A program made the position numbers and the translations under genes. Of a stretch of 64,000 nucleotides of DNA, positions 9,442 through 58,082 are shown piece after piece. The notes beneath the pieces are model-generated. The model searched no databases and had not been told where the DNA came from. It saw only the letters and a list, made by a program, of their open reading frames with translations. The stretch lies in contig CAWIHR010000010.1 in NCBI GenBank assembly GCA_963835945.1, positions 5,857-69,856 of the forward strand. Reading direction: 5' to 3'. This DNA is from an uncultured Chloroflexia bacterium (GTDB lineage: Bacteria; Chloroflexota; Limnocylindria; Limnocylindrales; CSP1-4). Numbering within the stretch: the first letter of the stretch is position 1; every line of letters begins with the position of its first letter.

Positions 9442-9538
9442 CCGCGTGAACCCGCAGCGCCGAGGTCGCCTTCGTGTGGTACAGGGGGGACGTCATCGAG
9501 CGCCCGGCTCCCAACAAATCGATCAGGGGAGGACGCTA

Positions 9539-22650: not shown

Positions 22651-23700
22651 CTACGCCGGGCGGCCATTCGACGGCGTCCGCAGGACATGCCAGGCCGCCA
22701 AGGTCACGAACGGGTTGCTCGTGCGTCGTCCCGTCGGCCCCCAGTCGGCGAAGGTGCCCCGACTCGTGACCCGCTCACGGGTCACTGCCGTGTAGTCCTC
22801 GCGCGGGAAACCGCCATCGGGCAGGCACTTCGCGATCAGCAGGGCCCGCGCATCGGCCATCCGGGGATCGCCTGCGTGCCCGGACTCGGTGAGGACCTGG
22901 AGGGCGAAGAGCAGGTCGTAGAACTGGATGGGACAGTGAATGCGGTCCACGGGACCGCCCCAGGACGGCCGTATCAGGGCGCCGTCGCGACGACGCCACA
23001 GCAGCCGCCGGCTGAGCAGCAGCTCGGCCGCCCGGTCGGCCGCCGCGAGCGCCCCTGCGTGCCCGTGGCGCATCCCGAAGACCCAGAGGGCCCGCAGTGG
23101 GATGGCCGTCTCCTGAAACGAGGAGTTGCGGGCGGCGGGACGCTTGTCGCAGTTCCAGCCGCCGTCGGGCCACTGCCAGACGATGAGCCGCTCCACGAGG
23201 GTGAGGGTCCGCTCGTCTTCGAGCCCGAGCCGGAGCGAGGACCACACGGCATTGCCTTCCTGCGAAGCGCAGCGGCGCACGCGCTCTGGCTGTTCGGGAT
23301 AGGAGACCGTGCCGGGCGGGCGCAGGTGCGCCCGGGAGAACAGCCACTCGTAGACCTGGTCCCGCAGCGGCAGCAGGGTCGGGTCGCCGGCGGGGTAGTC
23401 CAGCAGAGCCAGGCTCACGAGCGTCCAGTGGGGCCCCTGCCACTTGGCGTAGGGGTGCAGGTGGATCGTGCCGTTCGGTTCGCGGTGCGACAGGAGTGCC
23501 CGGGACCTCGGAGAGTCGGCGATCGCGGCGCGCAGGGTGTGAGCTTCCTCCGACTCTGGGTCGAGCGCGCCGGCAAGGACCCGGGCCCGATAGGCGAGCG
23601 TCGGATCGGACGACTCGGTCAACCGCGCCACCAGATCCGACGTCGCCGCTGAGACGCCGCCCACGGCGCTGCCGTTTGCGGAAGCCAGCCAGGTCATCAC
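22651..23700 (-). CDS. Hypothetical protein with a prenyltransferase / squalene-cyclase-like (alpha-alpha toroid) flavour
   Basis: 349 aa. The repeated aromatic/Gly motifs (WQWPDGGWNCD, LPDGGFP) are of the kind seen in terpenoid-cyclase/prenyltransferase repeats. The family call is tentative. Confidence 0.55.
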   Translation of the reverse strand: MMTWLASANGSAVGGVSAATSDLVARLTESSDPTLAYRARVLAGALDPESEEAHTLRAAIADSPRSRALLSHREPNGTIHLHPYAKWQGPHWTLVSLALLDYPAGDPTLLPLRDQVYEWLFSRAHLRPPGTVSYPEQPERVRRCASQEGNAVWSSLRLGLEDERTLTLVERLIVWQWPDGGWNCDKRPAARNSSFQETAIPLRALWVFGMRHGHAGALAAADRAAELLLSRRLLWRRRDGALIRPSWGGPVDRIHCPIQFYDLLFALQVLTESGHAGDPRMADARALLIAKCLPDGGFPREDYTAVTRERVTSRGTFADWGPTGRRTSNPFVTLAAWHVLRTPSNGRPA

Positions 23701-23971
23701 TGGTGGAGTCTACCGATCGGCTCTTGCTCCGAGAACCGCCCTTTCATGGGACCGAGCGTCGCCACACGACGGGCGAGATCGTGATGTCACCCTCGTCAGT
23801 TCCCGTGAGTCATATCGCGAGTGCACTACGCAAGCTCCGATGCGTCCGCGCAGCGATCGGTCGTCGGCGGTGAGGCTGTCGCCCATCGCTCCCCTCTTTC
23901 AGCCGGCCGTCGAATGTGTGCGGAGACGTACTTGGCGGTGACCTCGGCTAAGGTTCCACTGGCCGAGCGTC

Positions 23972-30240: not shown

Positions 30241-30419
30241 CCGGGTCTACACGGCCGCATCGGCGGCAATACGCGCTGGAGCGAAGTGATCCCGATCTTC
30301 CCGATCACGCCCGCGTCACCCATGGCGAGTCGCAGGACCCGAGTACGGAGACCCCGCCCGCGTGGCGCTGCCTCTTGCCGTGAGGGGCTACGATCACGAC
30401 CCATGATGGAGGGGCTTGT

Positions 30420-30818
30420 ATGACTCGGGTCCTTGTCGTCCAGCGCGACCCGGCGGTCGCCGAGCAGATGGCCGCCAGTCTGCGCGGTGCTGGCTATGAG
30501 ACCGAGCTCTGCGGTGGACCGGAACGGGAGCCATGCCCGGTCATCGCCGACATGCCCTGCCCTCTCGTCGACCGCGCGGACGTCCTCGTCTACGACGCCT
30601 GGGTCGCCGGCGACGCCGTCGCTGGGCACGAGCTCGTCTCTGCGCTCCGAGAGGTCTACGCGGACCTCCCGCTCGTGCTCACGTCCGTCGATCAGTCGGT
30701 TGGCTGGGCGGAACGAGAAGGCCCGCAGCGCGTGTTCCCGCTGGGCACCCGACCGAGCGACGCCGAACTGATCGAGGCGATCGAGGTCGCCCTCGGCGAA
30801 CAGGGCATGGCCGTCTGA
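30420..30818 (+). CDS. Receiver (REC)-like single-domain protein with a Cys-rich insert
   Basis: MTRVLVVQRDPAVAEQMAASLRGAGYE...ADVLVYDAW...LPLVLTS follows the REC beta-alpha pattern. It lacks the acidic DD pair and carries CGGPEREPCPVIADMPCP. GGAGGGG lies upstream. Confidence 0.5.
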   Translation: MTRVLVVQRDPAVAEQMAASLRGAGYETELCGGPEREPCPVIADMPCPLVDRADVLVYDAWVAGDAVAGHELVSALREVYADLPLVLTSVDQSVGWAEREGPQRVFPLGTRPSDAELIEAIEVALGEQGMAV

Positions 30819-31455: not shown

Positions 31456-31893
31456 TCACCGCGGGAGGAGCACGGCCAGGGCGCCCACGAGGAGCCCGCT
31501 GGCCAGGCTGGCCAGGCCGATCTGCGTCGCCCTCGCACGGTCGCGCGCGCGGGCGACGTCGTCCGTCACCTGGTGGGTCTCGCCGAGGGATCCGAAGTTG
31601 AAGACGCCCGCTGAGCCGAAGCCGGCACAGAAGCGCAGGCGGGCCTGCAGGTAGCCCGACGCGGCGAGCGCCGCCGGGAGGGCCACCAGGAGCCGCGCCA
31701 GGGGCGGTGCACCGACGGCGAGGAGCCCACCCCCCAGGATGACTGTCGCCCCGAGTCCGACATGCCCCGCCCGACGCCGCCGGGCGATCTCGGCGGGCCC
31801 GATGTTGCACACGCCGGGCTGGTATGCGCTGCCTCCGTCGCCGAGGATGGTGATCCTCGGCACAGAGGACTCACCAAACGCTGCCTTCGTCAC
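31456..31893 (-). CDS. Hypothetical membrane protein (2-3 TM)
   Basis: GTG start with GAGGAG 6-7 nt upstream. Contains YQPGVCNIGPAEIARRRRAGHVGLGATVILGGGLLAV and two further hydrophobic segments. No family assigned. Confidence 0.55.
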   Translation of the reverse strand: MTKAAFGESSVPRITILGDGGSAYQPGVCNIGPAEIARRRRAGHVGLGATVILGGGLLAVGAPPLARLLVALPAALAASGYLQARLRFCAGFGSAGVFNFGSLGETHQVTDDVARARDRARATQIGLASLASGLLVGALAVLLPR

Positions 31894-32201
31894 GCCGTGC
31901 TCCTCGTGTCATGCCTTGTTGTGGTGCGTCGTCTCTGGCCCGCAGCACCGGGCGTCACGACCTCTGCACGGCGGGGACCGTCTGGCCCTGGCACCTGCTC
32001 ATTCGCAGCCGCTGCCGTCGCGGATGGCCCGGCGGGTGCGGTGGCGCGCAGGAGGGCCACGCTCTCTCCCCTCGACATGCTGGCGCTGTCGGGCGGCGGT
32101 CCGAAGACGGGGCGGCACCGCCGGGTAAGCACAGAGGCCGGCCCCGGGGCCGGCCTCTGTGCACTGGTGTGGCCGGGCCGGCGGCCCGGCAGGGTCTCTG
32201 C

Positions 32202-32732
32202 CTAGGCGGGCAGGAGGACCGAGGTGATGACGTGGATGACGCCGTTGGTGGCCGGGATGTTGAAGAGCTTGTCGGCGATGTCGATGCGCGCGGTGGTGCC
32301 GGCGGTGGTGAAGAGGGTGCCGTTGTGGATGGCCCAGAGGGGCTGCCCCAGGAGGGTCTTCAGCGCGTTGATCTGGCCCCAGGCGGCGGGCAGGACGTCC
32401 TTGGCGTACTGGTCACCGGCCACCACGTGGTAGAGGAGGATCTTCGTGAGCGTGGCCTGCGGCAGCGCCGTGCAGACGTTGCTCTTGGTGAGGCCGAGCT
32501 TGGCGAAGGCGGCGTCGGTGGGGGCGAAGACGGTCAGCTGCTGGCCGCTCGTGAGGGCCTTGCCCACGGCCGGGTCAGCGCAGCCGACGGCGGCGAGGAG
32601 CGTCGTGAAGTTGCCGTTCGCCGTGGCGATCTGGACGATCGACTGGGTCGGCTGGGCCGCCGCCGCGAAGGTGGAGGGGACGATGGCGAGGACGAGCACG
32701 ACCCCGCCGAGCAGGGATGCGATGCGCTTCAC
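32202..32732 (-). CDS. Secreted fasciclin (FAS1) domain protein
   Basis: GTG start with AAGGAG upstream and a signal peptide (VKRIASLLGGVVLVLAIVPSTFAAAAQ). FAS1 motifs: IATANGNFTTLLAAV...LTVFAPTDAAFAKL...LLYHVV...NGVIHVITSVLLP. Confidence 0.85.
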   Translation of the reverse strand: MKRIASLLGGVVLVLAIVPSTFAAAAQPTQSIVQIATANGNFTTLLAAVGCADPAVGKALTSGQQLTVFAPTDAAFAKLGLTKSNVCTALPQATLTKILLYHVVAGDQYAKDVLPAAWGQINALKTLLGQPLWAIHNGTLFTTAGTTARIDIADKLFNIPATNGVIHVITSVLLPA

Positions 32733-32915
32733 CGGTGCTGATCTCCTTCGAGAACTGTGCTGGTCGACGTCTGCCTGGCCGTGCTGACTGATCCAGGGCG
32801 TCGTCATCTCTCTCTTCGGAGACGGTGGCGGCTTGGATGGGAAGGGATGGTCGGTGGCGGATAGGGAACCCCAACCCAGCTACCACTTGGGTCGGGCTAC
32901 CCGGCGCAGGCTGGC

Positions 32916-32938
32916 GCCCGGCAGTCGTCCTGCCGGGC
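32916..32938 (-). terminator. Perfect 9-bp GC hairpin between the heliorhodopsin and fasciclin genes
   Basis: The minus-strand RNA would read GCCCGGCAG-GACGA-CUGCCGGGC, about 125 nt after the heliorhodopsin stop. There is no U-tract, so it would be an I-shaped terminator if functional. Confidence 0.35.
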
Positions 32939-33059: not shown

Positions 33060-33863
33060 TTACGGTCGCAGGGTGCCGAAGAAGACCTGCCAAGCCAGCA
33101 GCGACTTGGCCAGCAGGCTGAAGAGCATGTAGGCCCGCTCGCCGTAGAGGTAGTCGCTCCAGCGCCCTACCTTCCGGTACTGCAGCACCATGTTGACCGC
33201 GAAGACGTTGAAGGCGACGAAGAGCGAGACGAAGATTCCGATCACGAAGCCCGGGATGGGTGCCGAGCCAGGCTGCGTGGCCGAGACGAGGAGCGTCACG
33301 AAGATGACCACCCACGGCACGGCGCCGGCGATGCAGCCGAAGACATAGTGGAGCCACTGGGGCCGCTCGCGGCCCTCGTTGGCGATCTCCATGCTCCAGC
33401 CGAAGAGGATCATGGCCGCGTTCACGCCGAAGATCGCGATCAGCGTGCCCACCTCCTGGACACCCGCCAGCGCCGCGATGACGACGATCATCACGCTTGA
33501 GCTGAACGAGTACTCGATCCAGCGGATCGGGTTCTGGCCGCGCGCGAGGTGAGCCTCGTACCAGCGTCGCGCCGGGAACGCCATGGCGAAATGGGCCACG
33601 GCGCTCATGAGGAAGAAGAGAGCCACAGCCGGGCCGATGGGCAGGTCCCAGATGTGGCGCTGGGCGGTGACGAGATGGCGGGTCGTCTGGTCGAAGCGCA
33701 GGTAGGTGCTCACCACCGGCGACGTGACTACCGGGTTCTTCGCGAACGAGAGGGCCAGGATCGCCACACACTGGAGGAAGTGGAGGACCGCCAAGACGGC
33801 GTTCCAACGAAATAGGCCGCTGGATCGGCCGGCCGGGATGGTGGTGGCAGCGTGGGCGGACAT
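33060..33863 (-). CDS. Heliorhodopsin (267 aa)
   Basis: Collinear by eye with the prototype heliorhodopsin 48C12 (from memory). Segments are LAVLHFLQCVAILAL, MSAVAHFAM, NPIRWIEYSFSSSVMIVVIA (counter-ion Glu), IFGVNAAMILFGW, FGCIAGAVPWVVI, PGFVIGIFVSLFVAFN and YGERAYMLFSLLAKSLLAWQVFFGTL (Schiff-base Lys). GGAGG lies 5 nt upstream of ATG 33863. Confidence 0.9.
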   Translation of the reverse strand: MSAHAATTIPAGRSSGLFRWNAVLAVLHFLQCVAILALSFAKNPVVTSPVVSTYLRFDQTTRHLVTAQRHIWDLPIGPAVALFFLMSAVAHFAMAFPARRWYEAHLARGQNPIRWIEYSFSSSVMIVVIAALAGVQEVGTLIAIFGVNAAMILFGWSMEIANEGRERPQWLHYVFGCIAGAVPWVVIFVTLLVSATQPGSAPIPGFVIGIFVSLFVAFNVFAVNMVLQYRKVGRWSDYLYGERAYMLFSLLAKSLLAWQVFFGTLRP

Positions 33864-33919
33864 GCGACCTCCGATGAATGCGGATGAACTCGGGTGCTCG
33901 CCGAGCATACGCGGGGGAG

Positions 33920-34182
33920 GATCTCCCAGGCGGCAGCACCGGCAGGGCGACCGCGGCCGACACCAGCGCGAGGGCCAGCTGATCGATCGTGCGGGCTGCC
34001 AGGTCCTGCGCCGGGCTCAGGACAGGGAAGAACTTCAGGGCGCCGAACCACCGGAAGACGACGCCCAGAGCGATCCGCAGCGACGGCTCGGGGGAGGCAG
34101 GCAAGGCGATTGTGATGCGGCGATCGAGCCGGTCAAAGCGGACGCGCCAGGCGTCGCAAGGGATGGTGGGGGAGGCAAGCAT
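33920..34182 (-). pseudogene. Truncated DoxX-like small membrane protein ORF abutting the heliorhodopsin start
   Basis: ATG 34182 has GGAGG 6 nt upstream. The product begins MLASPT...SLRIALGVVFRWFGALKFFPVLSPAQDLAARTIDQLALALVSAAVALPVL (the first two TM helices of the DoxX-like pattern). The frame then runs on without a stop through the whole heliorhodopsin gene, as part of track ORF 32575-34314. Confidence 0.4.
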
Positions 34183-35901: not shown

Positions 35902-36456
35902 TCAGGCCGCGAGCGCGGCCATCGGGCGGACCCGGTCGGCAAGTTCGCCCATCAGTCCCGCGATCTCGGCGCGAACACGCGGGTCGGCCAAGGTGAGCTC
36001 CTCGTCGAACGCCTCCGCCGCGAAGGGGACCGCGACCACGTGATCGAGCACGTCCGAGCGCGTGCGGCGCAGGGTCCGCACAACCGACTCGATGCCGCCC
36101 TGCGCCCCGCTTCCGCCGGGGGACGCCCCCATGACCAGGACCGGCTTCCCGGCCAGGAGTCGGACCGGACCGCGCGACGCCCAGTCCAGCGCGTTCTTGA
36201 GGACGCCGCTCGTGCCGTCGTTGTACTCGGGCGTGGCGATGAGCAGGGCGTCCGCCGCGGCAACCTCCCGCCGCAACTCCTCGACAATGGCCGGATAGCC
36301 GGCTGCCTCGAGGTCTCCGTCGTAGAAGGGGAGCGCGCCGAGCGCGTCGAAGACTTGCGTCTCCACGTCGGTCGGGGCTAAGTCCAGAGCGGCCCGCAGG
36401 AGCGCCCGGTTGTAGGAGGCCCGGCGGAGGCTCCCCGCGAGGCCCAGGATCTTCAT
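35902..36456 (-). CDS. NADPH-dependent FMN reductase
   Basis: MKILGLAGSLRRASYNRALLRAA...ADALLIATPEYNDGTSGVLKNALDWASR is the canonical NADPH-FMN reductase motif. Confidence 0.85.
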   Translation of the reverse strand: MKILGLAGSLRRASYNRALLRAALDLAPTDVETQVFDALGALPFYDGDLEAAGYPAIVEELRREVAAADALLIATPEYNDGTSGVLKNALDWASRGPVRLLAGKPVLVMGASPGGSGAQGGIESVVRTLRRTRSDVLDHVVAVPFAAEAFDEELTLADPRVRAEIAGLMGELADRVRPMAALAA

Positions 36457-36768: not shown

Positions 36769-37815
36769 TCAGCGCTCCGGGGCTGGATCGGGCACACCGG
36801 ACAGCTCGACCACGCTGTCCCAGACGCGTCGCCGATCGGCGGCCGAGAGGCGGGTCGCAGGGATCCGGTCAAAGGGCCGCGGCCGCCGATCGAGAAAGAG
36901 CTTCCCGCTAACCGTGCCGACAGCCCCGTCGGTGGCCAGCCAGACGATCGTGTCGGCGCCCTCCGCAGGCGTGCGCAGGAGCGGATGCATCCGTCGATAG
37001 AAACCGGGCAGCGACGCTGCGAGCCCCGGAGTGTCGGCCCAGCCGGGGTGCATCGCGTTGAAGGTCGGGCCCTTGCCGGCCACCCGCCGGGCCCACTCGC
37101 GGACCAGCGCCACCTGGGCGCGCTTCGCTCGGGCATAGGCGCGCGCTCCCGAGAACGGCTCGCCGCTCCACTGCAGGTCATCCAGGTGCAGCCTCTGGGT
37201 GTACATGCCCCCCGAGGTCACGGCGATCACGCGCGACCCTTGGGTTTGCCGGAGTAGCGGCAGCAACCCTGTGATCAGAACGAAGGGCCCGACGACGAGG
37301 ATCGCCAGCGTGGCCTCGATCCCGTCGGGCCCCACGATGCGTTCCGGGTAGATCGCCCCGGCGTTGTCCACCACCACGTCGAGTCGCGGCTCGGTCTCGA
37401 GGATTCGGGCCACCGCGGTCCGCACGGAGGCGAGAGATCCCAGGTCGGCGACGACGATCGGGAAGCGGTCCCCGCCGTGCGCTGCAGCGAGCGCATCGCG
37501 CACCGCGGCGAGGCGCTCCTCGCTCCGGCCGACGAGCAGCACCCTGGCGCCCAGCGCCGCCAGGGCTTCGGTCGCCGCCTTCCCCAGGCCCGATGTCGGG
37601 CCCGTGACCAGCACGGTCTTGCCCGCGAGCGTGTCGGCCGGCGGGGGAGCCCAGCCGAAGAGCCGGCGACGCAGCGCGATCCCCGTGTGGGGGAAGCTGC
37701 CGATGATCGATACTTCGAGCACGTCGTCTGCGAGGGTCTTAGGATCCACGGGCACTCCTCCGGATCGCGCCGGCGACCGCACGGACGTGACGGTCACGTG
37801 TTCATCGCCCATCAT
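36769..37815 (-). CDS. Short-chain dehydrogenase/reductase (DHRS12-like), divergent from the SRPBCC gene
   Basis: KTVLVTGPTSGLGKA (TGxxxGxG), VVVDNAG, YARAKRAQV (YxxxK). The ATG at 37815 is only 27 bp from the divergent SRPBCC start, so the true start may lie further in. Confidence 0.8.
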   Translation of the reverse strand: MMGDEHVTVTSVRSPARSGGVPVDPKTLADDVLEVSIIGSFPHTGIALRRRLFGWAPPPADTLAGKTVLVTGPTSGLGKAATEALAALGARVLLVGRSEERLAAVRDALAAAHGGDRFPIVVADLGSLASVRTAVARILETEPRLDVVVDNAGAIYPERIVGPDGIEATLAILVVGPFVLITGLLPLLRQTQGSRVIAVTSGGMYTQRLHLDDLQWSGEPFSGARAYARAKRAQVALVREWARRVAGKGPTFNAMHPGWADTPGLAASLPGFYRRMHPLLRTPAEGADTIVWLATDGAVGTVSGKLFLDRRPRPFDRIPATRLSAADRRRVWDSVVELSGVPDPAPER

Positions 37816-38334: not shown

Positions 38335-39606
38335 ATGAGAGTCGCGGTGGTCGGAGCAGGGGTCAGCGGCCTGACCGCCGCCTTTTACCTGAACCGGGAG
38401 CATCAGGTCCGCCTGTTCGAGCGCGACTCGGACGTCGGCGGGCACGTCAAGACCGTCCCCGTCGAGACGCCCACCGGGCGCATCCCTGTCGACACCGGGT
38501 TCATCGTGTACAACGAGACGACGTACCCGGTCTTCGTGCATCTCCTCAACGAGCTCGGAGTGGAGACGCAGCCCACCGAGATGTCGCTGAGCTCGACGTG
38601 CCACTCGTGCGATCTCGAGTTCAGCTTCAGGGGTGCCGGCGGCGTCTTCGCCCAACGCTCCGCACTGCTGCGGCCGTCGCACTGGCTGATGCTCGCCGAC
38701 GTCCTGCGCTTCTATCGCGACGCTCGTCGCAGGCTCGAGGGCGGCGCCCCCACGGACGCGACGCTAGGCGAGTATCTCGACGACCGGCGCTTCGGCCGGG
38801 ACTTCCGCCGCCACTTCCTCATCCCCCTGACGGCGGCCGTATGGTCCACCGGCCCGGACAAGATCCTCGACTATCCGGTCGACTACCTGCTGCACTTCCT
38901 CGACAACCACGGCCTGATCGGCTATGGGAAGACCCTGCAGTGGCGCGTGATCCGCGGCGGGTCGATGGTGTACGTCGATCGGATCGTGGCGTCGCTGCCC
39001 TCTGATGCCGTGCGCGCCGGGAGTCCGGTCACCGCCGTCACGCGGGACGCGCAGGGCGTCACCATCCAGACCGAGAACGGGTACACCGAGCGCTTCGACG
39101 CGGTCGTCCTGGCGACCCACGCCGACAACGCGCTGGCGCTGCTCCGGGACGCGGACGAGGCCGAGCGAGCCGCCCTCGGGTCGATTGCCTACTCGCGCAA
39201 CCAGGTCGTGCTGCACACCGACCGGGCCGTGCTGCCGAAGCTCCGGCGGGCCTGGGCCTCGTGGAACGTGGACCAGCCGGACTGCCGGAAGCCGGGCGAG
39301 GCGCTCACCATGACCTACTACATGAACCGCCTGCAGTCGCTCGGCGGTCCCGTTGCGTACTGCGTCTCCCTGAACTCGGGCAACCGGGTGCGGCCCGAGA
39401 AGGTCATTGTCGAGCGCGAGATGAGCCATCCCCGCTACACCTTCCGGACGCTCGCCGGCCAGCACGCGATCGGTGCGCTGCAGGGTCGCCGGAACACCTA
39501 CTATGCCGGGGCGCATCTCGGGTACGGCTTCCACGAGGACGGCTGCCGCTCGGGCTTCGAGGCGGCCGCCCGCATCCGTGCCGACGCGCGAGAGCGGGTT
39601 ACATGA
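38335..39606 (+). CDS. FAD/NAD-binding amine-oxidase-type oxidoreductase (COG2907-like; UfaD-like candidate)
   Basis: [37 protein letters not shown] is the dinucleotide-binding fold. The C-terminus is [14 protein letters not shown]. Its stop overlaps the next start (ATGA). Confidence 0.85.
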
Positions 39607-40343
39607 GGTCGCACCTGCTCGAAGGGAAGGTGCGACATCGGCGCGCCAGGCCCTTCGTCTACGAGCTCGAGCACGCCGTCTACTACTTCGCCCTCGATCT
39701 CGACGAGCTTGACGTCGTGCCCAGCGCGCTCCATCTTGTCAGCCGCAACCGGGCCAACGTGGTCACGTTCCGAGACGGCGACCACCTCGATCCGCCGGCC
39801 ACGGACGTCCGCGCCGCCGTCATGGGCCACCTGCGCGACGAGGGCTTCGATCCCCAGGGCTGGCACATCACCCTCGTCACGAACCTGCGTGTCTTCGGCT
39901 ACGTCTTCAATCCGGCGAGCTTCTACCTGTGCCGTGACGGCACGGGGACACTCCAGGTGGTCCTGATCGACGTGCACAACACGTTCGGCGAGCGGCACCT
40001 CTACGCGCTGCGCCGGCCGGAGGACCGGTCTGACTTCGTCGCCTCCACGGACAAGGCGTTCTACGTCTCGCCGTTCATTGACATGGAGGGCCGCTACACG
40101 GTCCGCGTCCGGGACGAACCCGCGCGCCTCCGCATCACCATCAACGAGGAGCAGGACGACGCGCTCCTCCTCCACGCGAGCCTCGACGTCAGGCGCCGGC
40201 CACTGACCGATCGCTCGGTCGCGCGCATGCTCGTTCGTCACCCCTTCATGACCCAGCGAACGATCGGCTTTATCCACTGGCATGCCCTACGCCTGTGGCT
40301 CCGGGGTGCGAAGTTTCACCGCCATGGAGCCCCGGCGCGATGA
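39603..40343 (+). CDS. DUF1365-family protein (UfaO-like candidate)
   Basis: [36 protein letters not shown]...[17 protein letters not shown]...VHNTFGERH matches the DUF1365 signature as I remember it. ATGA overlaps occur at both ends. Confidence 0.8.
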
Positions 40344-41581
40344 CCTCCCGGACCCTCTCCCCTCGCCTGCCCGCGCTGACCGACTCACTCCTCGCTGCGA
40401 CAGCCTGGCGCGTCGGCGTCGCCGCTGCCCGGCGCGTGCAGGTCGGATCGCTGACGATCATCCTGCCCGACGGCACACGCCACATGTTCGGCGACAGGGC
40501 GTCGGAGCTCCGGGGCGAGATCCACGTCCACGACCGCCAGGCGCTCGTGCGGATGCTGCTCGGCGGCGAGACCGGTGGTGGCGAAGCCTACATGGACGGG
40601 CTCTGGTCAAGCCCAGACCTGGCCGGGCTCCTGCGCTGGGCGGCCCTGAACCGTGAGGCGCTGGCCCTCTCGGCCGGCTGGTGGCGCGCTCCCGCCCAGC
40701 TCAGCCGCACGCTCGGCCATCGGCGCCGGCGCAACACGCGCACGGGGAGCCGGCGCAACATTGCCGCCCACTACGACCTGGGGAACGACTTCTACCGGCT
40801 CTTCCTGGACGAGACGATGACCTACTCGTGCGCCGTGTTCGCGACGCCCGACCAGTCGCTGGCGGACGCCCAGCGCAACAAGTACCGCAGCATGGCCGAG
40901 GGGGCCGGGCTCACACGGGGCCAGCACGTCCTCGAGATCGGCTCGGGCTGGGGCGGCTTCGCCCTGTATGCGGCCGGCGAGCTCGGCTGCCGCGTGACGT
41001 CCATCACGATCTCGAAGGAACAGTACGCCCTGGCCCGTGAGCGGGTCACGGCCGCCGGCCTCGACGACCTCGTGGACATCCAGCTGCGCGATTACCGGGA
41101 GATTCGCGGGACGTACGACGCGATCGTCTCGATCGAGATGCTGGAGGCGGTCGGAGCGGAGTACTACGCGACGTTCTTCGAGGTCTGCGACGCGGCGCTC
41201 ATTCCCGGCGGACGGATGAGCCTGCAGTCGATCACGTTCCCTGATGCTGCCTACGAGGCGCAACGTCGGGGCGCCAACTGGGTCCAGACCTACATCTTCC
41301 CGGGAGGGCTCTGCCCGTCGCTCGCCGTCATCGAGCGGGCGACCCGAGACACGCGGCTCCTCATCCGCAGCGTGGACGACATTGCCGCGAACTACGTGCG
41401 GACGCTGCGGGAGTGGCGCACGCAGTTCATGAGCCGGCTGGACGAGGTCCGAGCCATGGGCTTCGACGATCGGTTCGTGCGCATGTGGGAGTTCTACCTG
41501 GCCCTGAGCGAAGCCGGCTTCGCGACGGGGATTAGCCAGGACCTGCAGATCGTGCTCGAGAAACGGCGCGGCATCGGCTAA
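40340..41581 (+). CDS. Cyclopropane-fatty-acyl-phospholipid-synthase-like SAM-dependent methyltransferase
   Basis: NIAAHYDLGNDFYRLFLDETMTYSCAVF...AQRNKY...HVLEIGSGWGGFALYAA...IVSIEMLEAVG...IFPGG is the full CFA-synthase/mycolic-acid-methyltransferase pattern. Confidence 0.9.
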   Translation: MTSRTLSPRLPALTDSLLAATAWRVGVAAARRVQVGSLTIILPDGTRHMFGDRASELRGEIHVHDRQALVRMLLGGETGGGEAYMDGLWSSPDLAGLLRWAALNREALALSAGWWRAPAQLSRTLGHRRRRNTRTGSRRNIAAHYDLGNDFYRLFLDETMTYSCAVFATPDQSLADAQRNKYRSMAEGAGLTRGQHVLEIGSGWGGFALYAAGELGCRVTSITISKEQYALARERVTAAGLDDLVDIQLRDYREIRGTYDAIVSIEMLEAVGAEYYATFFEVCDAALIPGGRMSLQSITFPDAAYEAQRRGANWVQTYIFPGGLCPSLAVIERATRDTRLLIRSVDDIAANYVRTLREWRTQFMSRLDEVRAMGFDDRFVRMWEFYLALSEAGFATGISQDLQIVLEKRRGIG

Positions 41582-41900: not shown

Positions 41901-42383
41901 TTACACCGTCTGGACGGGTGCCTCCGCTGCCGCCTCGGCCTCTAAGGATGGGAGGATCGCGTGCTCCTCCTGCTCGAGGTGGGAGCCAATGAGCGCGTGC
42001 AACCCGTAGAGGTGGGCCCGCAGGTCGACCAGCTGGCGGTGGCTGGGCTCCCGTCGCACGGCCAGCCAGTCCGCCTCGAGGCGCTCCACGGCCTGGCGGA
42101 TCTGCCCGTGCTGGAGTCGCAGGACCCGAGTGGCCAACGGCGTGGCGGCCAGGCGGTCGATCTCGGGGAAGCAGAAGTTGTCCTCCCAGTCGAGATGCGG
42201 GAGGAGGGTCTTCTCGATGGTGTCGAGCAGGCTGCGCAGGGCGTTGGCGAGATCCTGGGCCGCGAGGTTGCCAGCCATCTCGGCGGTGGTCTCGATGCGC
42301 GCCACGACGTGCTCGATCTCGCGGTGCTCGCGGTCCAGGATGCGGCGCTCGATCGCCACCCCATGACCCGCCGCAATGGGCAT
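41901..42383 (-). CDS. Hemerythrin (HHE cation-binding) domain protein
   Basis: Only the last 160 aa of track ORF 41901-43316 are used. Contains ILDREHREIEHVVARIE, LLPHLDWEDNFCFPEID and LIGSHLEQEEHAILP (His/Glu ligand pattern). GGGGAGG lies upstream of ATG 42383. Confidence 0.7.
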   Translation of the reverse strand: MPIAAGHGVAIERRILDREHREIEHVVARIETTAEMAGNLAAQDLANALRSLLDTIEKTLLPHLDWEDNFCFPEIDRLAATPLATRVLRLQHGQIRQAVERLEADWLAVRREPSHRQLVDLRAHLYGLHALIGSHLEQEEHAILPSLEAEAAAEAPVQTV

Positions 42384-42680
42384 GCTCGCCTCCCCGGGAC
42401 GCTGCCGCTCGTTCGGGTGTGAGTCTCCCCGGCCACAGGTCCCCCGTGCCAGTGCCCTCCGGCATCCTTTCGACCTTCCGATGGACGGGCCGCAGAACTG
42501 GCCGGACCCAACTTCAAACACGAGGGCACGCGGCCGGTCTGACGGCGACCACGCAATGGTCCCCAGCCAGCCATCAGGCATGGAGTCGGGTGCGACCGTC
42601 GAGTGTCCGCGGATCCGTGCAGGGCTTGGGAGGCCCGACCCCGCGCAGGAGGCACCGAGCGCGAGGTGTGAGCCGCGTCT

Positions 42681-42720
42681 GACAGGCACAGTACACACGT
42701 GACAGGCACAGTACACACGG
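42681..42720. repeat. Tandem 20-bp direct repeat (2 copies) in a divergent intergenic region
   Basis: GACAGGCACAGTACACACGT GACAGGCACAGTACACACGG, with 19 of 20 positions identical. It lies between the hemerythrin start (42383, minus) and the PPOX start (42936, plus). Confidence 0.9.
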
Positions 42721-42935
42721 GCGACCGGCGAGGCGGCGATCGAGTCACTTGGCAGATGCCCTTCACTAAGGAGCATGCCCGCGGAGGCGGTGCGAGTCCC
42801 CGTCGACCACGCGCCCCACCGGGTCCAGCACGCTTGACTGCGGCTATTGTTCTTGCGCGGGCACCGCTGGTCGGCTAGCGTGGCTAGACCGACCATCTGG
42901 CCCGGCTCCACCCTTGCGACAGCCTCAGGAGCACC

Positions 42936-43352
42936 ATGAGCGTCTTCAGCGACCTCGAACTCGAGTACCTCGCTGGCCAGCGCCTGGGACGTCTGGCCAC
43001 CGTCGGGTCTGACGGCGCACCTCACGTCGTGCCGGTCTCCTTCGCCTACAACGGCGAGACCGACACGATCGACATCGGCGGCCATGCACCGGCAGTCACG
43101 AAGAAGTGGCGCGACATCGGCCGAGAGCCGCGGGTCGCCTTCGTCGTCGACGACGTGCTGCCGCCATGGCGGCCGCGCATGGTCGAGATCCGGGGACGGG
43201 CCAGCCTGCTCTTGGCGGGCGGGGTGTGGCTCGGCCCGGGGTTCGCTGACGAGTTCATCCGTATCACTCCGATCCGCATCGTGAGCTTCGGTCTCGACGG
43301 CACCCGCACGTCCCACGCGCGGAACGTGGGTTCCGCCGCGGATGACGCGTGA
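42936..43352 (+). CDS. PPOX-class (pyridoxamine 5'-phosphate oxidase-like) probable F420-dependent oxidoreductase
   Basis: LEYLAGQRLGRLATVGSDGAPHVVPVSFAYNGETDTIDIGGH...RVAFVVDD. AGGAG lies 5 nt upstream. Confidence 0.8.
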   Translation: MSVFSDLELEYLAGQRLGRLATVGSDGAPHVVPVSFAYNGETDTIDIGGHAPAVTKKWRDIGREPRVAFVVDDVLPPWRPRMVEIRGRASLLLAGGVWLGPGFADEFIRITPIRIVSFGLDGTRTSHARNVGSAADDA

Positions 43353-43810
43353 CGCTCGAGATACCGCCGGCGGGGACGCGCGGGGCTCGGATGCCCGGTG
43401 GGCCGCTCGTCCGAACCTTCGGGGGAGTGTATGCCGCGCTCTACCGTCTCCTAGGTGGCCGCCTCGTCGGCACGCGGATGCTCCTGCTCAGTACGGTGGG
43501 CGCCCGTTCGGGTCGGCCGCGCACGGCCCCGGTCGCGAGCTTCCCCGACGGCGCGGGCCGTTGGCTCGTGGCCGGCTCGGCCGGCGGCGCGGCCCGTCAT
43601 CCGGCCTGGTTCATCAACCTGGCCCACCACCCCGACCAGGTCTGGGTCGAGGTCGGCCCCCAAAGATTTCTGGTCACGCCCGAGCTCCTGCGCGGGGAGG
43701 AGCGCGCGGTCGCCTGGCGCCAGATCACCGCCCGCTCGCCTGGTTTCGCAGGCTACGCGCGCAGGACCGATCGCGAGATCCCGGTCGTGCGGCTCACCCG
43801 CGCGGAGTAG
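43349..43810 (+). CDS. Deazaflavin(F420H2)-dependent nitroreductase family (Ddn-like) protein
   Basis: MLLLSTVGARSGRPRTAPVASFPDGAGRWLVAGSAGGAARHPAWFINLAHHPDQVWVEVG is the family signature. The GTGA overlap with the PPOX gene suggests coupling. The start could instead be the Met at 43391. Confidence 0.8.
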   Translation: MTLEIPPAGTRGARMPGGPLVRTFGGVYAALYRLLGGRLVGTRMLLLSTVGARSGRPRTAPVASFPDGAGRWLVAGSAGGAARHPAWFINLAHHPDQVWVEVGPQRFLVTPELLRGEERAVAWRQITARSPGFAGYARRTDREIPVVRLTRAE

Positions 43811-43882
43811 CCCAGGGCGTCCGGCCCCACCAAGAGCGGACCATCGTGATGGGGCGGCGGCCGGCGACCGCACGGGGGTAGC

Positions 43883-45952
43883 ATGTCGGCCACGATGCTC
43901 CGGGCCACACGTCGCCAGTCCTTGCTTCTCGGGTTCGTCTGGGCGGTGCTGCTGCTGTTAGCGGCCGCCCCGGCGGCGGCGCAATCGGTGCCAAAGCTGC
44001 AGGGTCAGATCACCGACGAGACCGGGTCCCTAGGGAGCGGCACGGCGCAGGTCCAGTCGGCGCTCGGCAGCCTGGCGTCCCAGCACAACGTCCAGCTCGA
44101 CGTCGTGTTCGTCGCGACCAGCGGCAGCGAGGCAGCGCCGCAGCTCGCCCAGGACACGTACACGCAGAACAGCCTGGGCGGCAACGCCATGGTGCTGCTG
44201 GTAGCTGTCAACGACCGCCAGTACGGCTACTACCAAGACGGCGCCCTTGGCTCGCTCACAGCCGGGGACGTCGACTCGCTCCTCAGCAGTCAGCTCGCGC
44301 CGCGCTTCGCAGCCGGCGACTATGCCGCCGGCGTCGTCGCCTTCGCGAACGGGCTTGGGCAGGCACTCGCCGGCGGGGGCCAGGGTGGGACCGTCCCGGT
44401 TGCCACGCCCGTGTCGGGCCAGGCGCCGGGCCCCGCCCCGGCGAGCTCGAACAACGGCGTCCTGGCGCTGCTGGTCGGGCTGATTGTCGTGTTGCTCGGC
44501 GCCGCGGTGATCGTCACGTGGTTCCGGCGCTGGCGGGTCGCACACCTGGCGACCGAGGAGCGTGATCGACACACCGGGCAGCTCGCGCGCCAGGCAAACC
44601 AGCTGCTAATCCAGGCGGACGACGCGGTGCGCGACGCGGGCCAGGACCTCGGGTTCGCCGAGGCAGAGTTCAGCGCCGAGGAAGTGGAGCCGTTTCGCAC
44701 GGCCCTGTCACAGGCACAGACAGAACTGAAGGCCGCGTTCGTGGTGCGCCAGAAACTCGACGACGCGACCCCGGAGGACCCGCCCACGCGCGAGGCGATG
44801 CTCACTGACATCGTCACGCGTGCGCAGCGGGTGAGCAGCCTGATCGGCGAGCAGCAGCAACGGTTCCAGGAGCTACGCGATTTGGAGCGACGCGCGCCCG
44901 AGATTCTGGCTGGCTTGCCGGCCCAGGCCGCGGCACTCCAGGCCAGACTGCCAGCTGCCGAGACCACGATGCAGGGTCTGCAGGCCTACGCGGGGTCGAG
45001 CTGGGCTCCGGTGAAAGGGAACCTCGAAGAAACGCGGAAGCAAATCGACTTCGCCACTGCTGCCGCGGCGCACGGCTCAGCGGCGCTCACGGCCACGCCC
45101 CCGGATCCGCACACAGCCCGCGATGCTGCAGCCGCCGGGCAGGCCGCCCTGGCCGGAGGCGCCACGCTGCTTGACGCGATCGACCACCTGTCAGCTTCCA
45201 TCAGCGATGCCCGTGCGCACGTCGATCCGGAGATCAGCGCGGCCGAGACCGACATTGCAGCAGCACGCCAGGCGCTGCAGCACCGCGCTGGCGACCCCTC
45301 TCTCGAGTCCCGGCTCGCGGACGCCGACGCCCAGCTGGCCGCGGCGAAGGCAGCCATCGCCGCATCGGCGCCAGACCCCCTCGCTGCCCTGAAGAGTGCA
45401 CAGGCCGCCCATGCCGGGGCCGACCAGGTGCTCGCCAGTGAGCGTGCGGCCGAGGACCAGCTGGCGCGCCAGAAGACGGCGCTGCAGACGGCGCTCGTCT
45501 CCGCACAGGCGAGCGTGACCCACGCCAACGACTACATCGAGAGCCGGCGCAACGGTGTGGGACGGGAGGCCCGCACGCGTCTGGCCGAGGCGCAGCGTCA
45601 CCTCGAGCAGGCCCAGGCGGCGGCGGATGCCGGGTCGGCGCTGCCGGAGGCGCAGCAGGCGCAGCAATTGGCCGACGAAGCGTACCGGATCGCCAGCTCA
45701 GAGTTCGATGATTGGGACGGTCGCGGGGGACCGGGTGGCCAGCGCGGCATGAACCCGACCGGCGCGCTCATGGGCGGGCTCATCCTAGGTGGCCTGCTCG
45801 GCGGCGGCCTTCGGGGAGGCGGTTGGGGGGGCTCGCCCTGGGGCGGTCGGGGCGGCCTCGGCGGCTTGGGTGGCGGGGGAGGGTTCGGCGGCTTCGGCGG
45901 GGGCGGGGGCTTCGGCGGTGGCCGAGGCTTCGGTGGCGGTGGGAGATGGTGA
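43883..45952 (+). CDS. TPM-domain membrane protein with long coiled-coil region and Gly-rich tail
   Basis: Signal/TM helix, then a TPM-like domain (ITDETGSLGSGTAQVQSALGSLASQHNVQLDVVFV...AMVLLVAVNDRQYGYYQDG). A TM helix (VLALLVGLIVVLLGAAVIV) follows, then about 400 aa of Ala/Gln/Glu-rich helix and a GGFGG-type tail. Confidence 0.75.
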   Translation: MSATMLRATRRQSLLLGFVWAVLLLLAAAPAAAQSVPKLQGQITDETGSLGSGTAQVQSALGSLASQHNVQLDVVFVATSGSEAAPQLAQDTYTQNSLGGNAMVLLVAVNDRQYGYYQDGALGSLTAGDVDSLLSSQLAPRFAAGDYAAGVVAFANGLGQALAGGGQGGTVPVATPVSGQAPGPAPASSNNGVLALLVGLIVVLLGAAVIVTWFRRWRVAHLATEERDRHTGQLARQANQLLIQADDAVRDAGQDLGFAEAEFSAEEVEPFRTALSQAQTELKAAFVVRQKLDDATPEDPPTREAMLTDIVTRAQRVSSLIGEQQQRFQELRDLERRAPEILAGLPAQAAALQARLPAAETTMQGLQAYAGSSWAPVKGNLEETRKQIDFATAAAAHGSAALTATPPDPHTARDAAAAGQAALAGGATLLDAIDHLSASISDARAHVDPEISAAETDIAAARQALQHRAGDPSLESRLADADAQLAAAKAAIAASAPDPLAALKSAQAAHAGADQVLASERAAEDQLARQKTALQTALVSAQASVTHANDYIESRRNGVGREARTRLAEAQRHLEQAQAAADAGSALPEAQQAQQLADEAYRIASSEFDDWDGRGGPGGQRGMNPTGALMGGLILGGLLGGGLRGGGWGGSPWGGRGGLGGLGGGGGFGGFGGGGGFGGGRGFGGGGRW

Positions 45953-46020
45953 GCTGGGTTGTGCTGACGCGCCGTCGCGCTGAGATGCGTTCACGCGGAC
46001 GATAGGAAGGAGAACCACGC

Positions 46021-46731
46021 ATGGCACAGACATCGATCCTTGGCCGCATCGGCCAGCTCGTCCGGGCGAACGTGAACGGGCTCATCGACAGCGCCGAGGA
46101 CCCGGAGAAGATGCTCGACCAGCTAATCCGGGACTTCACGAACAACATGGCCGAGGCCGAGGATGCGGTCGCCCAGACCGTCGGGAACCTGCGCCTCATG
46201 GAGGACGACGCGACTGAGGCCAAGGCCGCAGTTACGGAGTGGGGCAGCAAGGCAGCTGCGGCGTCGCACAAGGCCGACGAGCTCCGGGCGGCCGGCAACG
46301 CGGCCGAGGCGGATCGGTTCGACAAGCTCGCCAAGGTCGCGCTGCGACGCCAGCTCGGATTCGAGGACCAGGTCAAGACGTTCGAGACGCAGATCGCCCA
46401 GCAGACTGAGCTCGTCGACAAGCTCAAGGATGGCCTCACGAAGCTTCGTGCGAAGCGCGAGGAGCTCGTGCAGAAGCGCGACGAGCTGGTCGGGCGGGCG
46501 AAGATGGCCCAGGCGCAGGTGCAGGTCCAGCAGACGCTGCGCGACGCCTCGGTCATGGACCCCACGAGCGAGCTCAACCGGTTCGAGGAGCGGATCAGGC
46601 GCCAGGAGGCCATGGCCCGCGGGCAAGCCGAAGTGGCCGCTTCATCAGTGGAGGAGCAGTTCGCCTCGCTCGACAGCGACTCGGACGAACTGGAAGTTGA
46701 CGCGAGGCTGAAGGCGCTCAAGGGCAGCTGA
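46021..46731 (+). CDS. pspA: PspA/IM30 (phage shock protein A / Vipp1) family protein
   Basis: MAQTSILGRIGQLVRANVNGLIDSAEDPEKMLDQLIRDFTNNMAEAEDAVAQ is the canonical PspA N-terminus. The protein is coiled coil throughout. GGAAGGAG lies upstream. Confidence 0.9.
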   Translation: MAQTSILGRIGQLVRANVNGLIDSAEDPEKMLDQLIRDFTNNMAEAEDAVAQTVGNLRLMEDDATEAKAAVTEWGSKAAAASHKADELRAAGNAAEADRFDKLAKVALRRQLGFEDQVKTFETQIAQQTELVDKLKDGLTKLRAKREELVQKRDELVGRAKMAQAQVQVQQTLRDASVMDPTSELNRFEERIRRQEAMARGQAEVAASSVEEQFASLDSDSDELEVDARLKALKGS

Positions 46732-49386: not shown

Positions 49387-49545
49387 ATGGCTGGGCCCGA
49401 CGTCGCGGTTCCTGCGCCCTCCTCACCCAGAACGATCCGTTGGACGCTGCTGGGTGTCATGCTCTCGATGCTGCTGGGCATGCTCGGCACCACGACCGTT
49501 GGCACCGCGATGCCGACGATCGTGCGTGACCTTGGCGGTTTCGAC
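49387..49545 (+). pseudogene. N-terminal 53 codons of a DHA2-type MFS transporter, cut by IS30
   Basis: AAGGAG plus ATG, then ...WTLLGVMLSMLLGMLGTTTVGTAMPTIVRDLGGFD matches the N-terminal signature of the intact MFS at 20259-22004. Family sequence ends at 49545, and no continuation follows the IS. Confidence 0.7.
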
Positions 49546-50603
49546 GCTCGGGTTCCACCGATCGACGCAACACCTTGATGGGTGCAGTGTCGATCGGGAG
49601 GTGGCCCATGGCGCAGTGGGGCAGGCCGGCGTTGACGGCCGAGCAGAAGCGAGACATGTGGTCCCGCTGGAAAGCAGGTCAATCGCTCAGTGAGATCGGG
49701 CGGGCGCTCGGGAGGGAACGGAGCGCCATCCACCGCATGGTCGCGACCACCGGCGGGTACGTGCCGGTGGACCAGCGTCGCTCGCCGCGGGTGCTCTCGT
49801 CCGCCGAGCGGGAGGAGATCTCGCGCGGTCTGGCCGAGGGCGTCTCGCTGCGCATGATCGCCCGCCGCGCCGGCCGGGCCGCCTCGACGATCAGCCGCGA
49901 GGTCGCCCGCCACGGTGGCCGGCACCGCTATCGCGCGACACAGGCCGACAAGCGGGCCTGGCGGCGGGCCTGCCGACCAAAGCCCTGCAAGCTCGCGACG
50001 TCAGCGGAGCTGCGGGAGTTGGTAGCGGGCAAGCTCGCGCTCGACTGGTCGCCCCAGCAGATCTCGGGCTGGCTTGCCCGCACGTATCCGGGGGAGCAGG
50101 CTCGGCAGGTGTCGAGCGAGACGATCTATCGGAGCCTGTTCATCCAGGCCCGGGGCGTGCTGCACAAGGAGCTCATGGTCCACCTGCGCACCCGGCGCAG
50201 CATCCGTCGCTCTCGTCTCGCGACCACCAAGGGCCAGGGCCGTGGCGGGATCGTCGACGCGGTCTCCATCCGGGAGCGGCCGGCCGAGGCGAAGGACCGG
50301 GCGGTGCCGGGCCACTGGGAGGGTGACCTCCTCGCCGGCTCCGCCAACAGCCACATCGCCACGCTCGTGGAGCGCCAGACCCGCTACCTCCTCCTCGTCA
50401 AGGTACCGGGCAAGGGCTCCACGGGGGTGGTCGACGCCCTCGCCGCCCAAGTCCAGACGCTGCCCCGTCAGCTGTGGGCGAGCCTGACCTGGGATCGCGG
50501 GGTGGAGCTCGCCGACCACCGGCGCTTCAGCATCGCCACCGACGTCGCGGTCTACTTCTGTGACCCCAGGAGTCCCTGGCAACGGGGCACCAACGAGAAC
50601 ACT

Positions 50604-55098: not shown

Positions 55099-55152
55099 GC
55101 CGGCAGCACCCGGGGCGTACCAGGCCCGAGCAACCTACAGGAGGAGAAGCCC

Positions 55153-57031: not shown

Positions 57032-57033
57032 CG

Positions 57034-58041: not shown

Positions 58042-58082
58042 TCGGTCGGTCGCGGCGCACCGGGACGGCGGGGAGGCGATAA

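Follow-up and report, generated by a model that had tools for sequence, protein, structure and literature searches.

A canonical heliorhodopsin of a Chloroflexota bacterium and its possible place among photo-oxidative stress and membrane-lipid remodelling genes

What can the genes around a heliorhodopsin (HeR) tell about its function? This question is raised by a 64-kb stretch of DNA (hereafter the window, meaning the whole stretch analysed), which carries a HeR gene on its minus strand and whose host is a soil or peat Chloroflexota bacterium of the Candidatus Limnocylindria type. The context of such a gene matters, as it is not settled what HeRs do in the cell; those of prokaryotes have been described as still unresolved in function (10.1101/2021.02.16.431466). 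The open reading frame (ORF) is a genuine, intact and canonical HeR. With a probability of about 0.6, it may be proposed that this is a functional protein acting as a light-activated regulatory partner within a set of genes for photo-oxidative stress and membrane-lipid remodelling.

The heliorhodopsin and its upstream region

The gene and the signals around it are the following:

33060..33863, minus strand: HeR coding sequence, 267 amino acids (aa), ATG at 33863-33861 and TAA stop at 33062-33060
33868..33872, minus strand: GGAGG Shine-Dalgarno sequence, 4 nt 5´ of the HeR ATG
33904..33909, minus strand: -10-like hexamer TATGCT, about 41-46 nt 5´ of the HeR ATG
32917..32937, minus strand: GC-rich hairpin CCCGGCAG-GACGA-CTGCCGGG in the 252-nt spacer between the HeR and fasciclin genes

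The identity of the protein was proposed in a first-pass annotation and is confirmed by the family models. The Pfam model Heliorhodopsin (PF18761), which that annotation had suggested as a check, matches the protein at full length (profile positions 1-242 of 242, E 8.6e-93, 310.6 bits against a cutoff of 26.7), and the NCBIfam equivalog NF038020, 'heliorhodopsin HeR', reaches 312.2 bits (cutoff 100). The predicted collinearity with 48C12 is borne out by alignment with sequences in the PDB (TaHeR 6is6, E 8.5e-60; 48C12 6su3, E 2.5e-59), which runs over residues 16-267.

The four motifs previously quoted are all present in the ORF: VLHFLQ at 26-31, VAHFAM at 89-94, RWIEYSFSSSVM at 114-125 and SLLAKSLLAWQ at 249-259. 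The residues assigned from them fall where expected, with the two conserved histidines at H28 and H91 (H23 and H80 in 48C12), the counter-ion glutamate at E117 in TM3 (transmembrane helix 3; E107 in 48C12) and the Schiff-base lysine at K253 in TM7 (K241). Counting along the alignment adds the window/48C12 pairs Q31/Q26, S87/S76, R114/R104, E159/E149, E242/E230, S249/S237, S254/S242 and W258/W246. The aligned 48C12 residues are those discussed by Kovalev et al., among which E149 and E230 are functionally important (PMC7049168), and the cytoplasmic polar cluster R114, E159 and E242 is kept in the window HeR. The TM7 Schiff-base lysine and the invariant TM3 arginine by which Chazan et al. recognize HeRs (10.1101/2021.02.16.431466) are found here as K253 and R114.

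Residue conservation was scored over an alignment of 79 diverse representatives of the HeR family. The columns of R114 and E242 are invariant (79/79), while glutamate occupies the E117 column in 63 of the sequences and histidine the H28 and H91 columns in 47 and 72, respectively. The Schiff-base lysine is absent from 16/79 representatives and the counter-ion glutamate also from 16/79, so that the window copy belongs to the canonical majority. A sizeable share of HeR homologues, by the same losses, must lack the usual mode of retinal binding.

The AlphaFold2 model of the window HeR (pLDDT 88.5, pTM 0.84) has seven helices. The first helix (residues 11-41) is followed by a β-hairpin at 47-75 (strands 47-58 and 63-75), which is the long, HeR-specific hairpin of the first extracellular loop, and then by six TM helices. 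Foldseek superimposes the model on the HeR crystal structures 6is6, 7u55, 6su3 and 6uh3 with TM-scores of 0.84-0.94 (rmsd 1.7-2.7 Å), against at most 0.78, and mostly 0.54-0.72, for type-1 rhodopsins. Ten lysines and arginines lie in the predicted cytoplasmic segments and one in the short external ones. This positive-inside pattern agrees with the homology to HeRs of determined topology and is consistent with a cytoplasmic N-terminus (inverted topology), as had been predicted. Moreover, the gene is under purifying selection, since its dN/dS is 0.10-0.13 against homologues that are 86-99% identical.

The 267-aa ORF on the minus strand and its GGAGG had been read correctly at first pass. In the upstream alignment, this GGAGG is kept in the same place throughout the clade of HeRs at least 83% identical, and the 267-aa start is used by nearly all close homologues. 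A longer reading of 282 aa, starting at ATG 33908, is disfavoured: this ATG lies inside the -10-like TATGCT, and the homologues use the 267-aa start. In an alignment of 51 non-identical upstream regions, the -10-like hexamer is the only upstream element conserved among relatives and may be regarded as a putative promoter element. The relatives carry TGGACA-N16-TATTGT/TATCGT, and the -35 element is poor or degenerate in the window. The HeR gene retains its own -10 element and Shine-Dalgarno sequence whatever gene stands upstream. Neither the σ-LitS consensus nor the Pseudomonas LitR box was seen by eye in the HeR upstream sequence. Downstream, the hairpin at 32917-32937 could be a terminator without a T tract; a scan for consensus terminators found no site in the HeR-fasciclin spacer, with sites only within coding sequence.

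The protein is not rare. In a word-indexed protein search, 7251 of the 8000 candidates scored were HeR relatives at E <= 1e-20. Identity is 84-99% in all of the top 120, which come from JGI, ENA and NCBI metagenomes and for the most part have 267 aa; hundreds of 85-99% identical proteins derive from peat, fen and soil metagenomes. An exhaustive search of representatives gave 3083 clusters at E <= 1e-3. The exact-sequence lookup returned no record of the window HeR; a relative that is 99% identical (P0001) is on record, and the locus of that relative (L001) served for context. Several relatives (e.g. P0018, P0028 and P0032) bear the NCBI name 'heliorhodopsin HeR [Candidatus Limnocylindrales bacterium]', Candidatus Limnocylindrales being an order of Chloroflexota. 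The first-pass annotation had valued this gene as a well-preserved copy: the preservation stands, but such copies are not unusual. The window HeR is an ordinary member of a well-populated known family, and by itself it adds little, HeRs being abundant and public metagenome-assembled genomes (MAGs) already containing annotated members of this clade.

Neighbouring genes in the window and in related loci

The genes flanking the HeR gene are listed below, where SDR stands for short-chain dehydrogenase/reductase and CFA for cyclopropane fatty acid:

32202..32807, minus strand: secreted fasciclin (FAS1), 201 aa, 3´ of the HeR gene on the same strand; signal-peptide-like N-terminus; Pfam PF02469, E 3.3e-19
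33920..34181, minus strand: degenerate remnant of a membrane-protein-like ORF, within the 487 nt between the divergent HeR and SDR-DUF2867 genes; a 54-aa gene call in L001-L003
34351..35781, plus strand: SDR-DUF2867, 476 aa, in which DUF2867 is joined to an atypical, NAD(P)-binding SDR/NmrA-like domain as a fusion; divergent from the HeR gene
35902..36456, minus strand: NADPH-dependent FMN reductase, 184 aa; Pfam FMN_red, E 1.2e-36
36769..37815, minus strand: classical SDR (adh_short), at most 348 aa; a 281-aa start at 37614 is called in the 99%-identical locus L001
37843..38286, plus strand: SRPBCC/Polyketide_cyc2 protein of lipid-binding fold, 147 aa, which opens the ufa-like operon and is divergent from the SDR; Pfam E 1.8e-17
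38335..39606, plus strand: FAD-dependent oxidoreductase, UfaD-like, 423 aa, amine-oxidase/phytoene-desaturase superfamily; PF01593, E 1.8e-26
39603..40343, plus strand: DUF1365 protein, UfaO-like, 246 aa, 4-nt overlap with the preceding stop; PF07103, E 2.7e-74
40340..41581, plus strand: SAM methyltransferase of the CFA-synthase family, UfaM/Cfa-like, 413 aa, 4-nt overlap with the preceding stop; CMAS PF02353, E 3.2e-85
41901..42383, minus strand: hemerythrin, a redox-flavoured context gene
42936..43352, plus strand: PNPOx-like protein, redox-flavoured context gene
43391..43810, plus strand: F420H2-dependent quinone reductase, redox-flavoured context gene

Within this neighbourhood, 38335-41581 holds a trio made up of an FAD oxidoreductase, a DUF1365 protein and a methylase of the CFA-synthase family. 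The 4-nt (ATGA) overlaps at 39603-39606 and 40340-40343 point to translational coupling of this ufaD-ufaO-ufaM-like operon. All NCBIfam CFA synthase models score under their cutoffs for the 40340-41581 protein, and for the HeR neighbours in general the NCBIfam models gave no more than generic matches below threshold. The SDR-DUF2867 protein matches NAD_binding_10/NmrA/Epimerase and DUF2867 (E 1.8e-33) in Pfam. The fasciclin is nearer to generic βIg-H3-type FAS1 domains (PDB 1w7d, E 1.2e-12), 1w7d being the fasciclin of R. sphaeroides, than to AstaP (8c18, E 3.2e-6), a carotenoprotein of photo-oxidative stress. The redox-flavoured stretch at 41901..43810 is syntenic in L001. The remnant at 33920-34181 does not count as a gene here: Pfam gives no match, the 167 loci described below contain no homologue, and strains with 99% identical HeRs show different breaks in its frame. 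It is probably a non-functional, decayed gene.

The context was compared across 167 HeR loci (7 found by exact protein, 80 from GTDB genomes by a scan with a 17-sequence alignment, and 80 from metagenomes). After gene calling, the four neighbours on each side were clustered, and Pfam confirmed the family to which each cluster representative had been assigned. The counts of loci with each family near the HeR gene are:

NAD-binding/DUF2867: 17/167, 11 of them directly upstream (position -1), the most frequent directly upstream family
adh_short SDR: 15/167
MerR-HTH plus B12-binding regulators, within four genes: 14/167
hybrid kinases: 12/167
SRPBCC: 11/167, 8 of them directly upstream and divergent (position -1)
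FMN reductase: 8/167
aldo-keto reductase: 8/167
fasciclin: 8/167, plus one found by HMM search and 4 remnants
CFA-synthase-like: 7/167
FAD oxidoreductase: 7/167
extracytoplasmic function (ECF) sigma factor, within four genes: 6/167
DUF1365: 5/167

In several sister loci, the association is closer than in the window. Tight operons join the CFA synthase, SDR-DUF2867 and HeR genes in that order, with gaps of at most 10 nt (L012), or the HeR gene and SDR-DUF2867 (L024). In another arrangement (L008, L009, L013 and L154-L157), the order CFA synthase, DUF1365, FAD oxidoreductase, SRPBCC is read divergently from the HeR gene, SRPBCC lying nearest to it, and the SDR orthologue lies directly 3´ of the HeR gene. 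This orthologue, 68-73% identical to the window SDR, abuts or overlaps the HeR 3´ end in L008, L009, L013, L153-L155 and L157. The association also extends to Gaiellales (Actinomycetota), where one locus (L032) combines a ufa-like trio, SDR-DUF2867 and HeR. In a second (L022, a Gaiellaceae MAG, 836-5006), MerR-B12 and SDR-DUF2867 genes overlapping by 4 nt are divergent from a fasciclin-HeR gene pair. With this arrangement, L022 provides the clearest case of a HeR promoter that may be under LitR control. Furthermore, ECF sigma and MerR-B12 genes are divergent from the HeR gene in L118 and L122, and adjacency (adjacency only) of HeR to MerR-B12 or ECF genes is found in L008, L009, L013-L015, L017, L022, L029, L038, L083, L118 and L122. 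Fasciclin adjoins HeR elsewhere in four further arrangements.

Quantitatively, a ufa-like gene lies within four genes in 11% of the loci with a HeR at least 60% identical, against 2% of the more distant loci and about 0.2% expected, by a rough estimate, for a single-copy ufa-like cluster. Any gene of the module lies within four genes in 36% of the loci with a HeR at least 60% identical (and at least three neighbour genes). The interpretable neighbourhood expected at first pass is thus real, and its conservation only partial.

Some further observations concern these loci and the window. In L004-L007 (about 1400-9900), two unrelated integrative elements, one with a phage-type integrase, RepSA and HTH_17 and the other with a resolvase and an integrase, directly border the 5´ side of one and the same 88%-identical HeR gene, and the junction holds an rve_3 fragment; this flank of the gene appears to be a hot spot for insertions. 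In L093-L096, 87-aa fasciclin remnants are found about 50-310 nt upstream of the HeR gene (minus strand), divergent from it, whereas L090, L091, L102 and L114 carry an intact fasciclin at the matching position, as if fasciclin and HeR had been paired in an ancestor and the pair were now breaking down in some strains. In the window itself, a 145-aa predicted membrane protein adjoins the fasciclin gene; its ORF is one of the three listed below that have a high G+C at third codon positions (GC3) and no Pfam match.

The remaining features of the window are:

1-1753, minus strand: mobile element with an IS630-type transposase (HTH_32 and DDE_3) that shares a single stop-to-stop frame with a SnoaL domain
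7033-7840: more SnoaL and HTH_32 fragments
22651-23709 (minus), 30384-30818 (plus) and 31456-31908 (minus): three well-supported, high-GC3 ORFs without Pfam match, among them one of 352 aa with a WQWPDGGW motif reminiscent of terpene-cyclase/prenyltransferase repeats
43850-46731, plus strand: TPM-domain membrane protein of 700 aa, with an extended coiled region rich in Ala and Gln and a C-terminal tail rich in Gly; a PspA/IM30 gene comes directly after it
49530-51941, plus strand: adjacent IS30-like and IS110-family transposases
55099-59168, plus strand: MoxR AAA ATPase, DUF58 and two VWA/BatA genes, an aerotolerance-type, Bat-like cluster

Proposed function and competing explanations

In the proposed reading, the window HeR would bind all-trans retinal and absorb green light, as the characterised HeRs do between 519 and 562 nm. 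After isomerisation, the Schiff-base proton would stay inside the protein, giving a long-lived O state and no ion pumping, by analogy with 48C12 and TaHeR in both respects. As a sensor with a slow photocycle, it would regulate a co-encoded protein in a light-dependent way, as its context and the known HeR-partner pairs suggest. The gene set in question would comprise the secreted fasciclin, SDR-DUF2867, the SDR, SRPBCC and the ufaD-ufaO-ufaM-like operon for furan or methyl fatty acids. The best candidates for a direct partner may be the NAD(P)-binding SDR-DUF2867 and the adh_short SDR, which are co-operonic with HeR in sister loci. There, the set adjoins LitR/CarH-type B12 photoregulators and a LitS-like ECF sigma factor, so that HeR in those lineages is probably light-induced.

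These ideas can be carried further, to a detailed scheme that is improbable as a whole. The HeR of Limnocylindria and Gaiellales would be the membrane photoreceptor of a photo-oxidative-stress module in monoderm bacteria, with induction of the LitR/LitS type. The O-state HeR would switch SDR-DUF2867 or the SDR, and thereby the UfaD/UfaO/UfaM-like enzymes, placing under light control the synthesis of methylated or furan fatty acids that scavenge singlet oxygen, with the secreted fasciclin as extracytoplasmic component. If true, Proteobacteria would have, in the σE-ChrR singlet-oxygen response, a functional analogue of this rhodopsin-based system.

Several observations weigh against a regulatory role within this gene set. 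In the window, the HeR gene is outside any operon with the ufa-like or SDR genes, which lie 3-8 kb off, and is divergent from SDR-DUF2867. A search of the whole window for MerR-B12 and ECF sigma genes found none near HeR, the best match (E 0.007, BldC-like) being 28 kb away, and the alignment of upstream regions revealed no conserved palindromic or operator motif, inverted repeats being weak. Neither the adjacent regulator nor the promoter operator that would mark a LitR/CarH-LitS regulon was found at the window HeR. Furthermore, no module gene occurs within four genes in 64% of the loci with HeRs at least 60% identical, the neighbourhood is unstable, and 88%-identical HeRs adjoin mobile elements and a PAS-GGDEF-EAL gene. 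The trio appears to resemble UfaD/UfaO/UfaM by family membership and gene order only. SDR adjacency alone is weak evidence, as SDRs are abundant families and some adjacency to HeR is expected by chance. The literature search found no experiment on the window HeR or its clade.

The HeR could instead be a stand-alone photosensor, or have its partner encoded elsewhere (e.g. glutamine synthetase, a photolyase, a two-component system or cyclic di-GMP enzymes), the redox and lipid genes being coincidental neighbours or merely co-regulated members of a 'light island'. Neighbourhoods turn over rapidly among 83-90% identical HeRs, and the adjacent slots are taken by hybrid kinases, GGDEF/EAL proteins, ABC ATPases, DUF1232 and integrative elements; the HeR gene's own -10 element and Shine-Dalgarno sequence, conserved irrespective of the upstream gene, also suit a gene that stands by itself. 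Bulzu et al. tie HeRs mainly to histidine kinases (PMC8612252). It has also been described by Chazan et al. that the same oxidative-stress and light families adjoin DTE proton pumps, so that neighbours common to HeRs and proton-pump rhodopsins may mark light islands (10.1101/2021.02.16.431466), a point that weighs against the proposed role as well. Against a solitary sensor stands the recurrence of the same families near HeR in at least five gene orders and two phyla, including the tight operons of L012, L024 and the L008 type, which makes chance or inherited synteny alone an unlikely cause. This explanation is held to be unlikely, although the chance that it is correct is far from negligible.

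The source of the chromophore bears on another explanation. A Pfam scan that took in all plausible genes across the window, about 70 ORFs, found no polyprenyl synthase, phytoene synthase, lycopene cyclase, Blh or carotenoid oxygenase among them, and within this set the earlier statement that crtE/B/I/Y and blh are absent from the 64 kb holds. The FAD oxidoreductase at 38335-39606 was considered as CrtI and rejected: it scores 23.5 bits with NCBIfam crtI_fam, whose cutoff is 238, and belongs to the DUF1365/CFA-synthase operon. The lack of crt and blh genes among the ORFs scanned agrees with the published rarity of blh both near HeR genes and in HeR genomes, the same work proposing that retinal is obtained by an unknown route (10.1101/2021.02.16.431466), and the retinal must come from genes beyond the window or from the environment. 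If the host lacks blh, the neighbours could serve chromophore supply, with SDRs interconverting retinol and retinal, and the fasciclin or the SRPBCC/DUF2867 folds scavenging and handing over retinoids or carotenoids. SDR and NAD-binding genes are indeed the commonest immediate HeR neighbours, and the FAS1 protein AstaP, which the window fasciclin matches, binds carotenoids. This binding, however, is regarded as a neofunctionalisation in green algae, a cyanobacterial FAS1 homologue being non-binding (PMC10147662), and the window fasciclin is closer to the βIg-H3 type. Moreover, none of the window SDRs reaches any retinol-dehydrogenase model of NCBIfam, and a role of the neighbours in chromophore supply appears very unlikely.

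About as unlikely is the idea that the HeR is itself the effector, either as a light-gated proton transporter like the viral V2HeR3 or as an enzyme dependent on light, whose substrates would be lipids or small anions bound in its cytoplasmic cavity. Transport assays on characterised prokaryotic HeRs such as 48C12 and TaHeR, whose residue set the window HeR keeps, are not known to have detected ion transport, and no HeR is known to have a demonstrated enzymatic activity. V2HeR3 is reported to transport protons (PMC9448325). Kovalev et al. proposed the Schiff-base cavity of 48C12 as an 'active site', but also that the Schiff-base proton remains in an internal cavity throughout the photocycle (PMC7049168). 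Chazan et al. speculated on a light-dependent modification of fatty acids, with which the lipid-modifying neighbours found here would be compatible, yet the long photocycle of HeRs is suggestive of light sensing (10.1101/2021.02.16.431466). A light-activated HeR regulating a partner within the stress and lipid gene set is preferred over these explanations.

Comparison with known heliorhodopsins and light-response systems

Compared with the structurally characterised 48C12 (6su3, 6su4 and 6uh3) and TaHeR of a Thermoplasmatales archaeon (6is6 and 7u55), the window HeR is about 40-44% identical in structural alignments. It shares with them the seven-TM fold, the hairpin of the first extracellular loop, the lysine, the single glutamate and the histidine pair, and also the serines equivalent to S76 and S237 and the glutamates equivalent to E149 and E230. 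It differs in its origin from Chloroflexota, in an N-terminus 10 residues longer and in small loop indels. The HeRs of its own Limnocylindria clade are 85-99% identical to it and alike in length (267 aa) and start. L001-L003 have the same upstream gene order as the window, whereas most 83-90% identical relatives have other neighbours.

The families of the gene set are well known from light and singlet-oxygen responses. The σE-ChrR singlet-oxygen regulon of R. sphaeroides includes cfaS/UfaM, UfaD (RSP1091), the DUF1365 protein UfaO (RSP1090), an SDR (RSP1087), a photolyase (phrA) and the fasciclin RSP_1409 (PMC7074977, PMC7380195, PMC6852236). In R. palustris, ufaD-ufaO-ufaM (RPA2571-2570-2569) constitute a furan fatty acid pathway, whose UfaD is a flavoprotein resembling phytoene desaturases and whose UfaO belongs to DUF1365 (PMC7380195). 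The LitR region of Pseudomonas, with phrB, an SDR, an FAD oxidoreductase and ufaM, is induced 25-33 fold by light (PMC9758184), and the MerR-B12 protein LitR of Streptomyces acts with the ECF sigma factor LitS (PMC11519972). In Chlamydomonas, the SAK1-dependent singlet-oxygen response comprises CFA1/2, fasciclin, DUF1365 and DUF2177 (PMC4067076), and DUF2177 is also a signature neighbour of HeRs (10.1101/2021.02.16.431466; PMC11109279).

The window and these ufa clusters share the same families, and in the window the FAD oxidoreductase, DUF1365 and CFA-synthase-like genes follow one another as ufaD-ufaO-ufaM do in R. palustris. An SDR and a fasciclin accompany the trio, and MerR-B12 and ECF regulators are found near HeR in the sister loci. 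In contrast, the systems of R. sphaeroides, R. palustris and Pseudomonas belong to diderm Proteobacteria and lack a rhodopsin, while in the window a HeR lies in or near the set and no regulator was found.

HeRs are known to bind and regulate co-encoded enzymes, and three HeR-partner pairs have been studied experimentally: AbHeR with glutamine synthetase, TfHeR with a photolyase, and OcHeR with the ABC transporter OmrDE (PMC9529153, PMC9769723, PMC11109279). As in those systems, the window HeR lies beside an enzyme that it may regulate by direct binding, and SDR is one of the ten HeR neighbour groups described by Kim et al. in 2024, which also include MerR, photolyase and DUF2177 (PMC11109279). 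It differs from them in having no adjacent glutamine synthetase, photolyase or ABC exporter, and its SDR-DUF2867 gene is divergent rather than co-operonic.

Genomic surveys have pointed in the same general direction. Chazan et al. linked HeR to oxidative stress, photolyase, cobalamin-binding proteins, PNPOx (one of its frequent neighbours) and lipid remodelling through DegV, DUF2177 and DUF1295 (10.1101/2021.02.16.431466), and Bulzu et al. to oxidative-stress mitigation and two-component systems (PMC8612252). A search of the literature library available turned up no paper pairing HeR with DUF1365, CFA-synthase, cyclopropane- or furan-fatty-acid, or fasciclin genes. The linkage of HeR with ufa-like, fasciclin and SDR-DUF2867 genes is a refinement of published themes, not a new kind of system. 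It narrows the general idea of oxidative stress and lipid remodelling to concrete partners and read-outs, linking HeR, more tightly in the sister lineages than here, to a defined and tractable gene set whose homologues in Proteobacteria and green algae form the core of the light and singlet-oxygen response.

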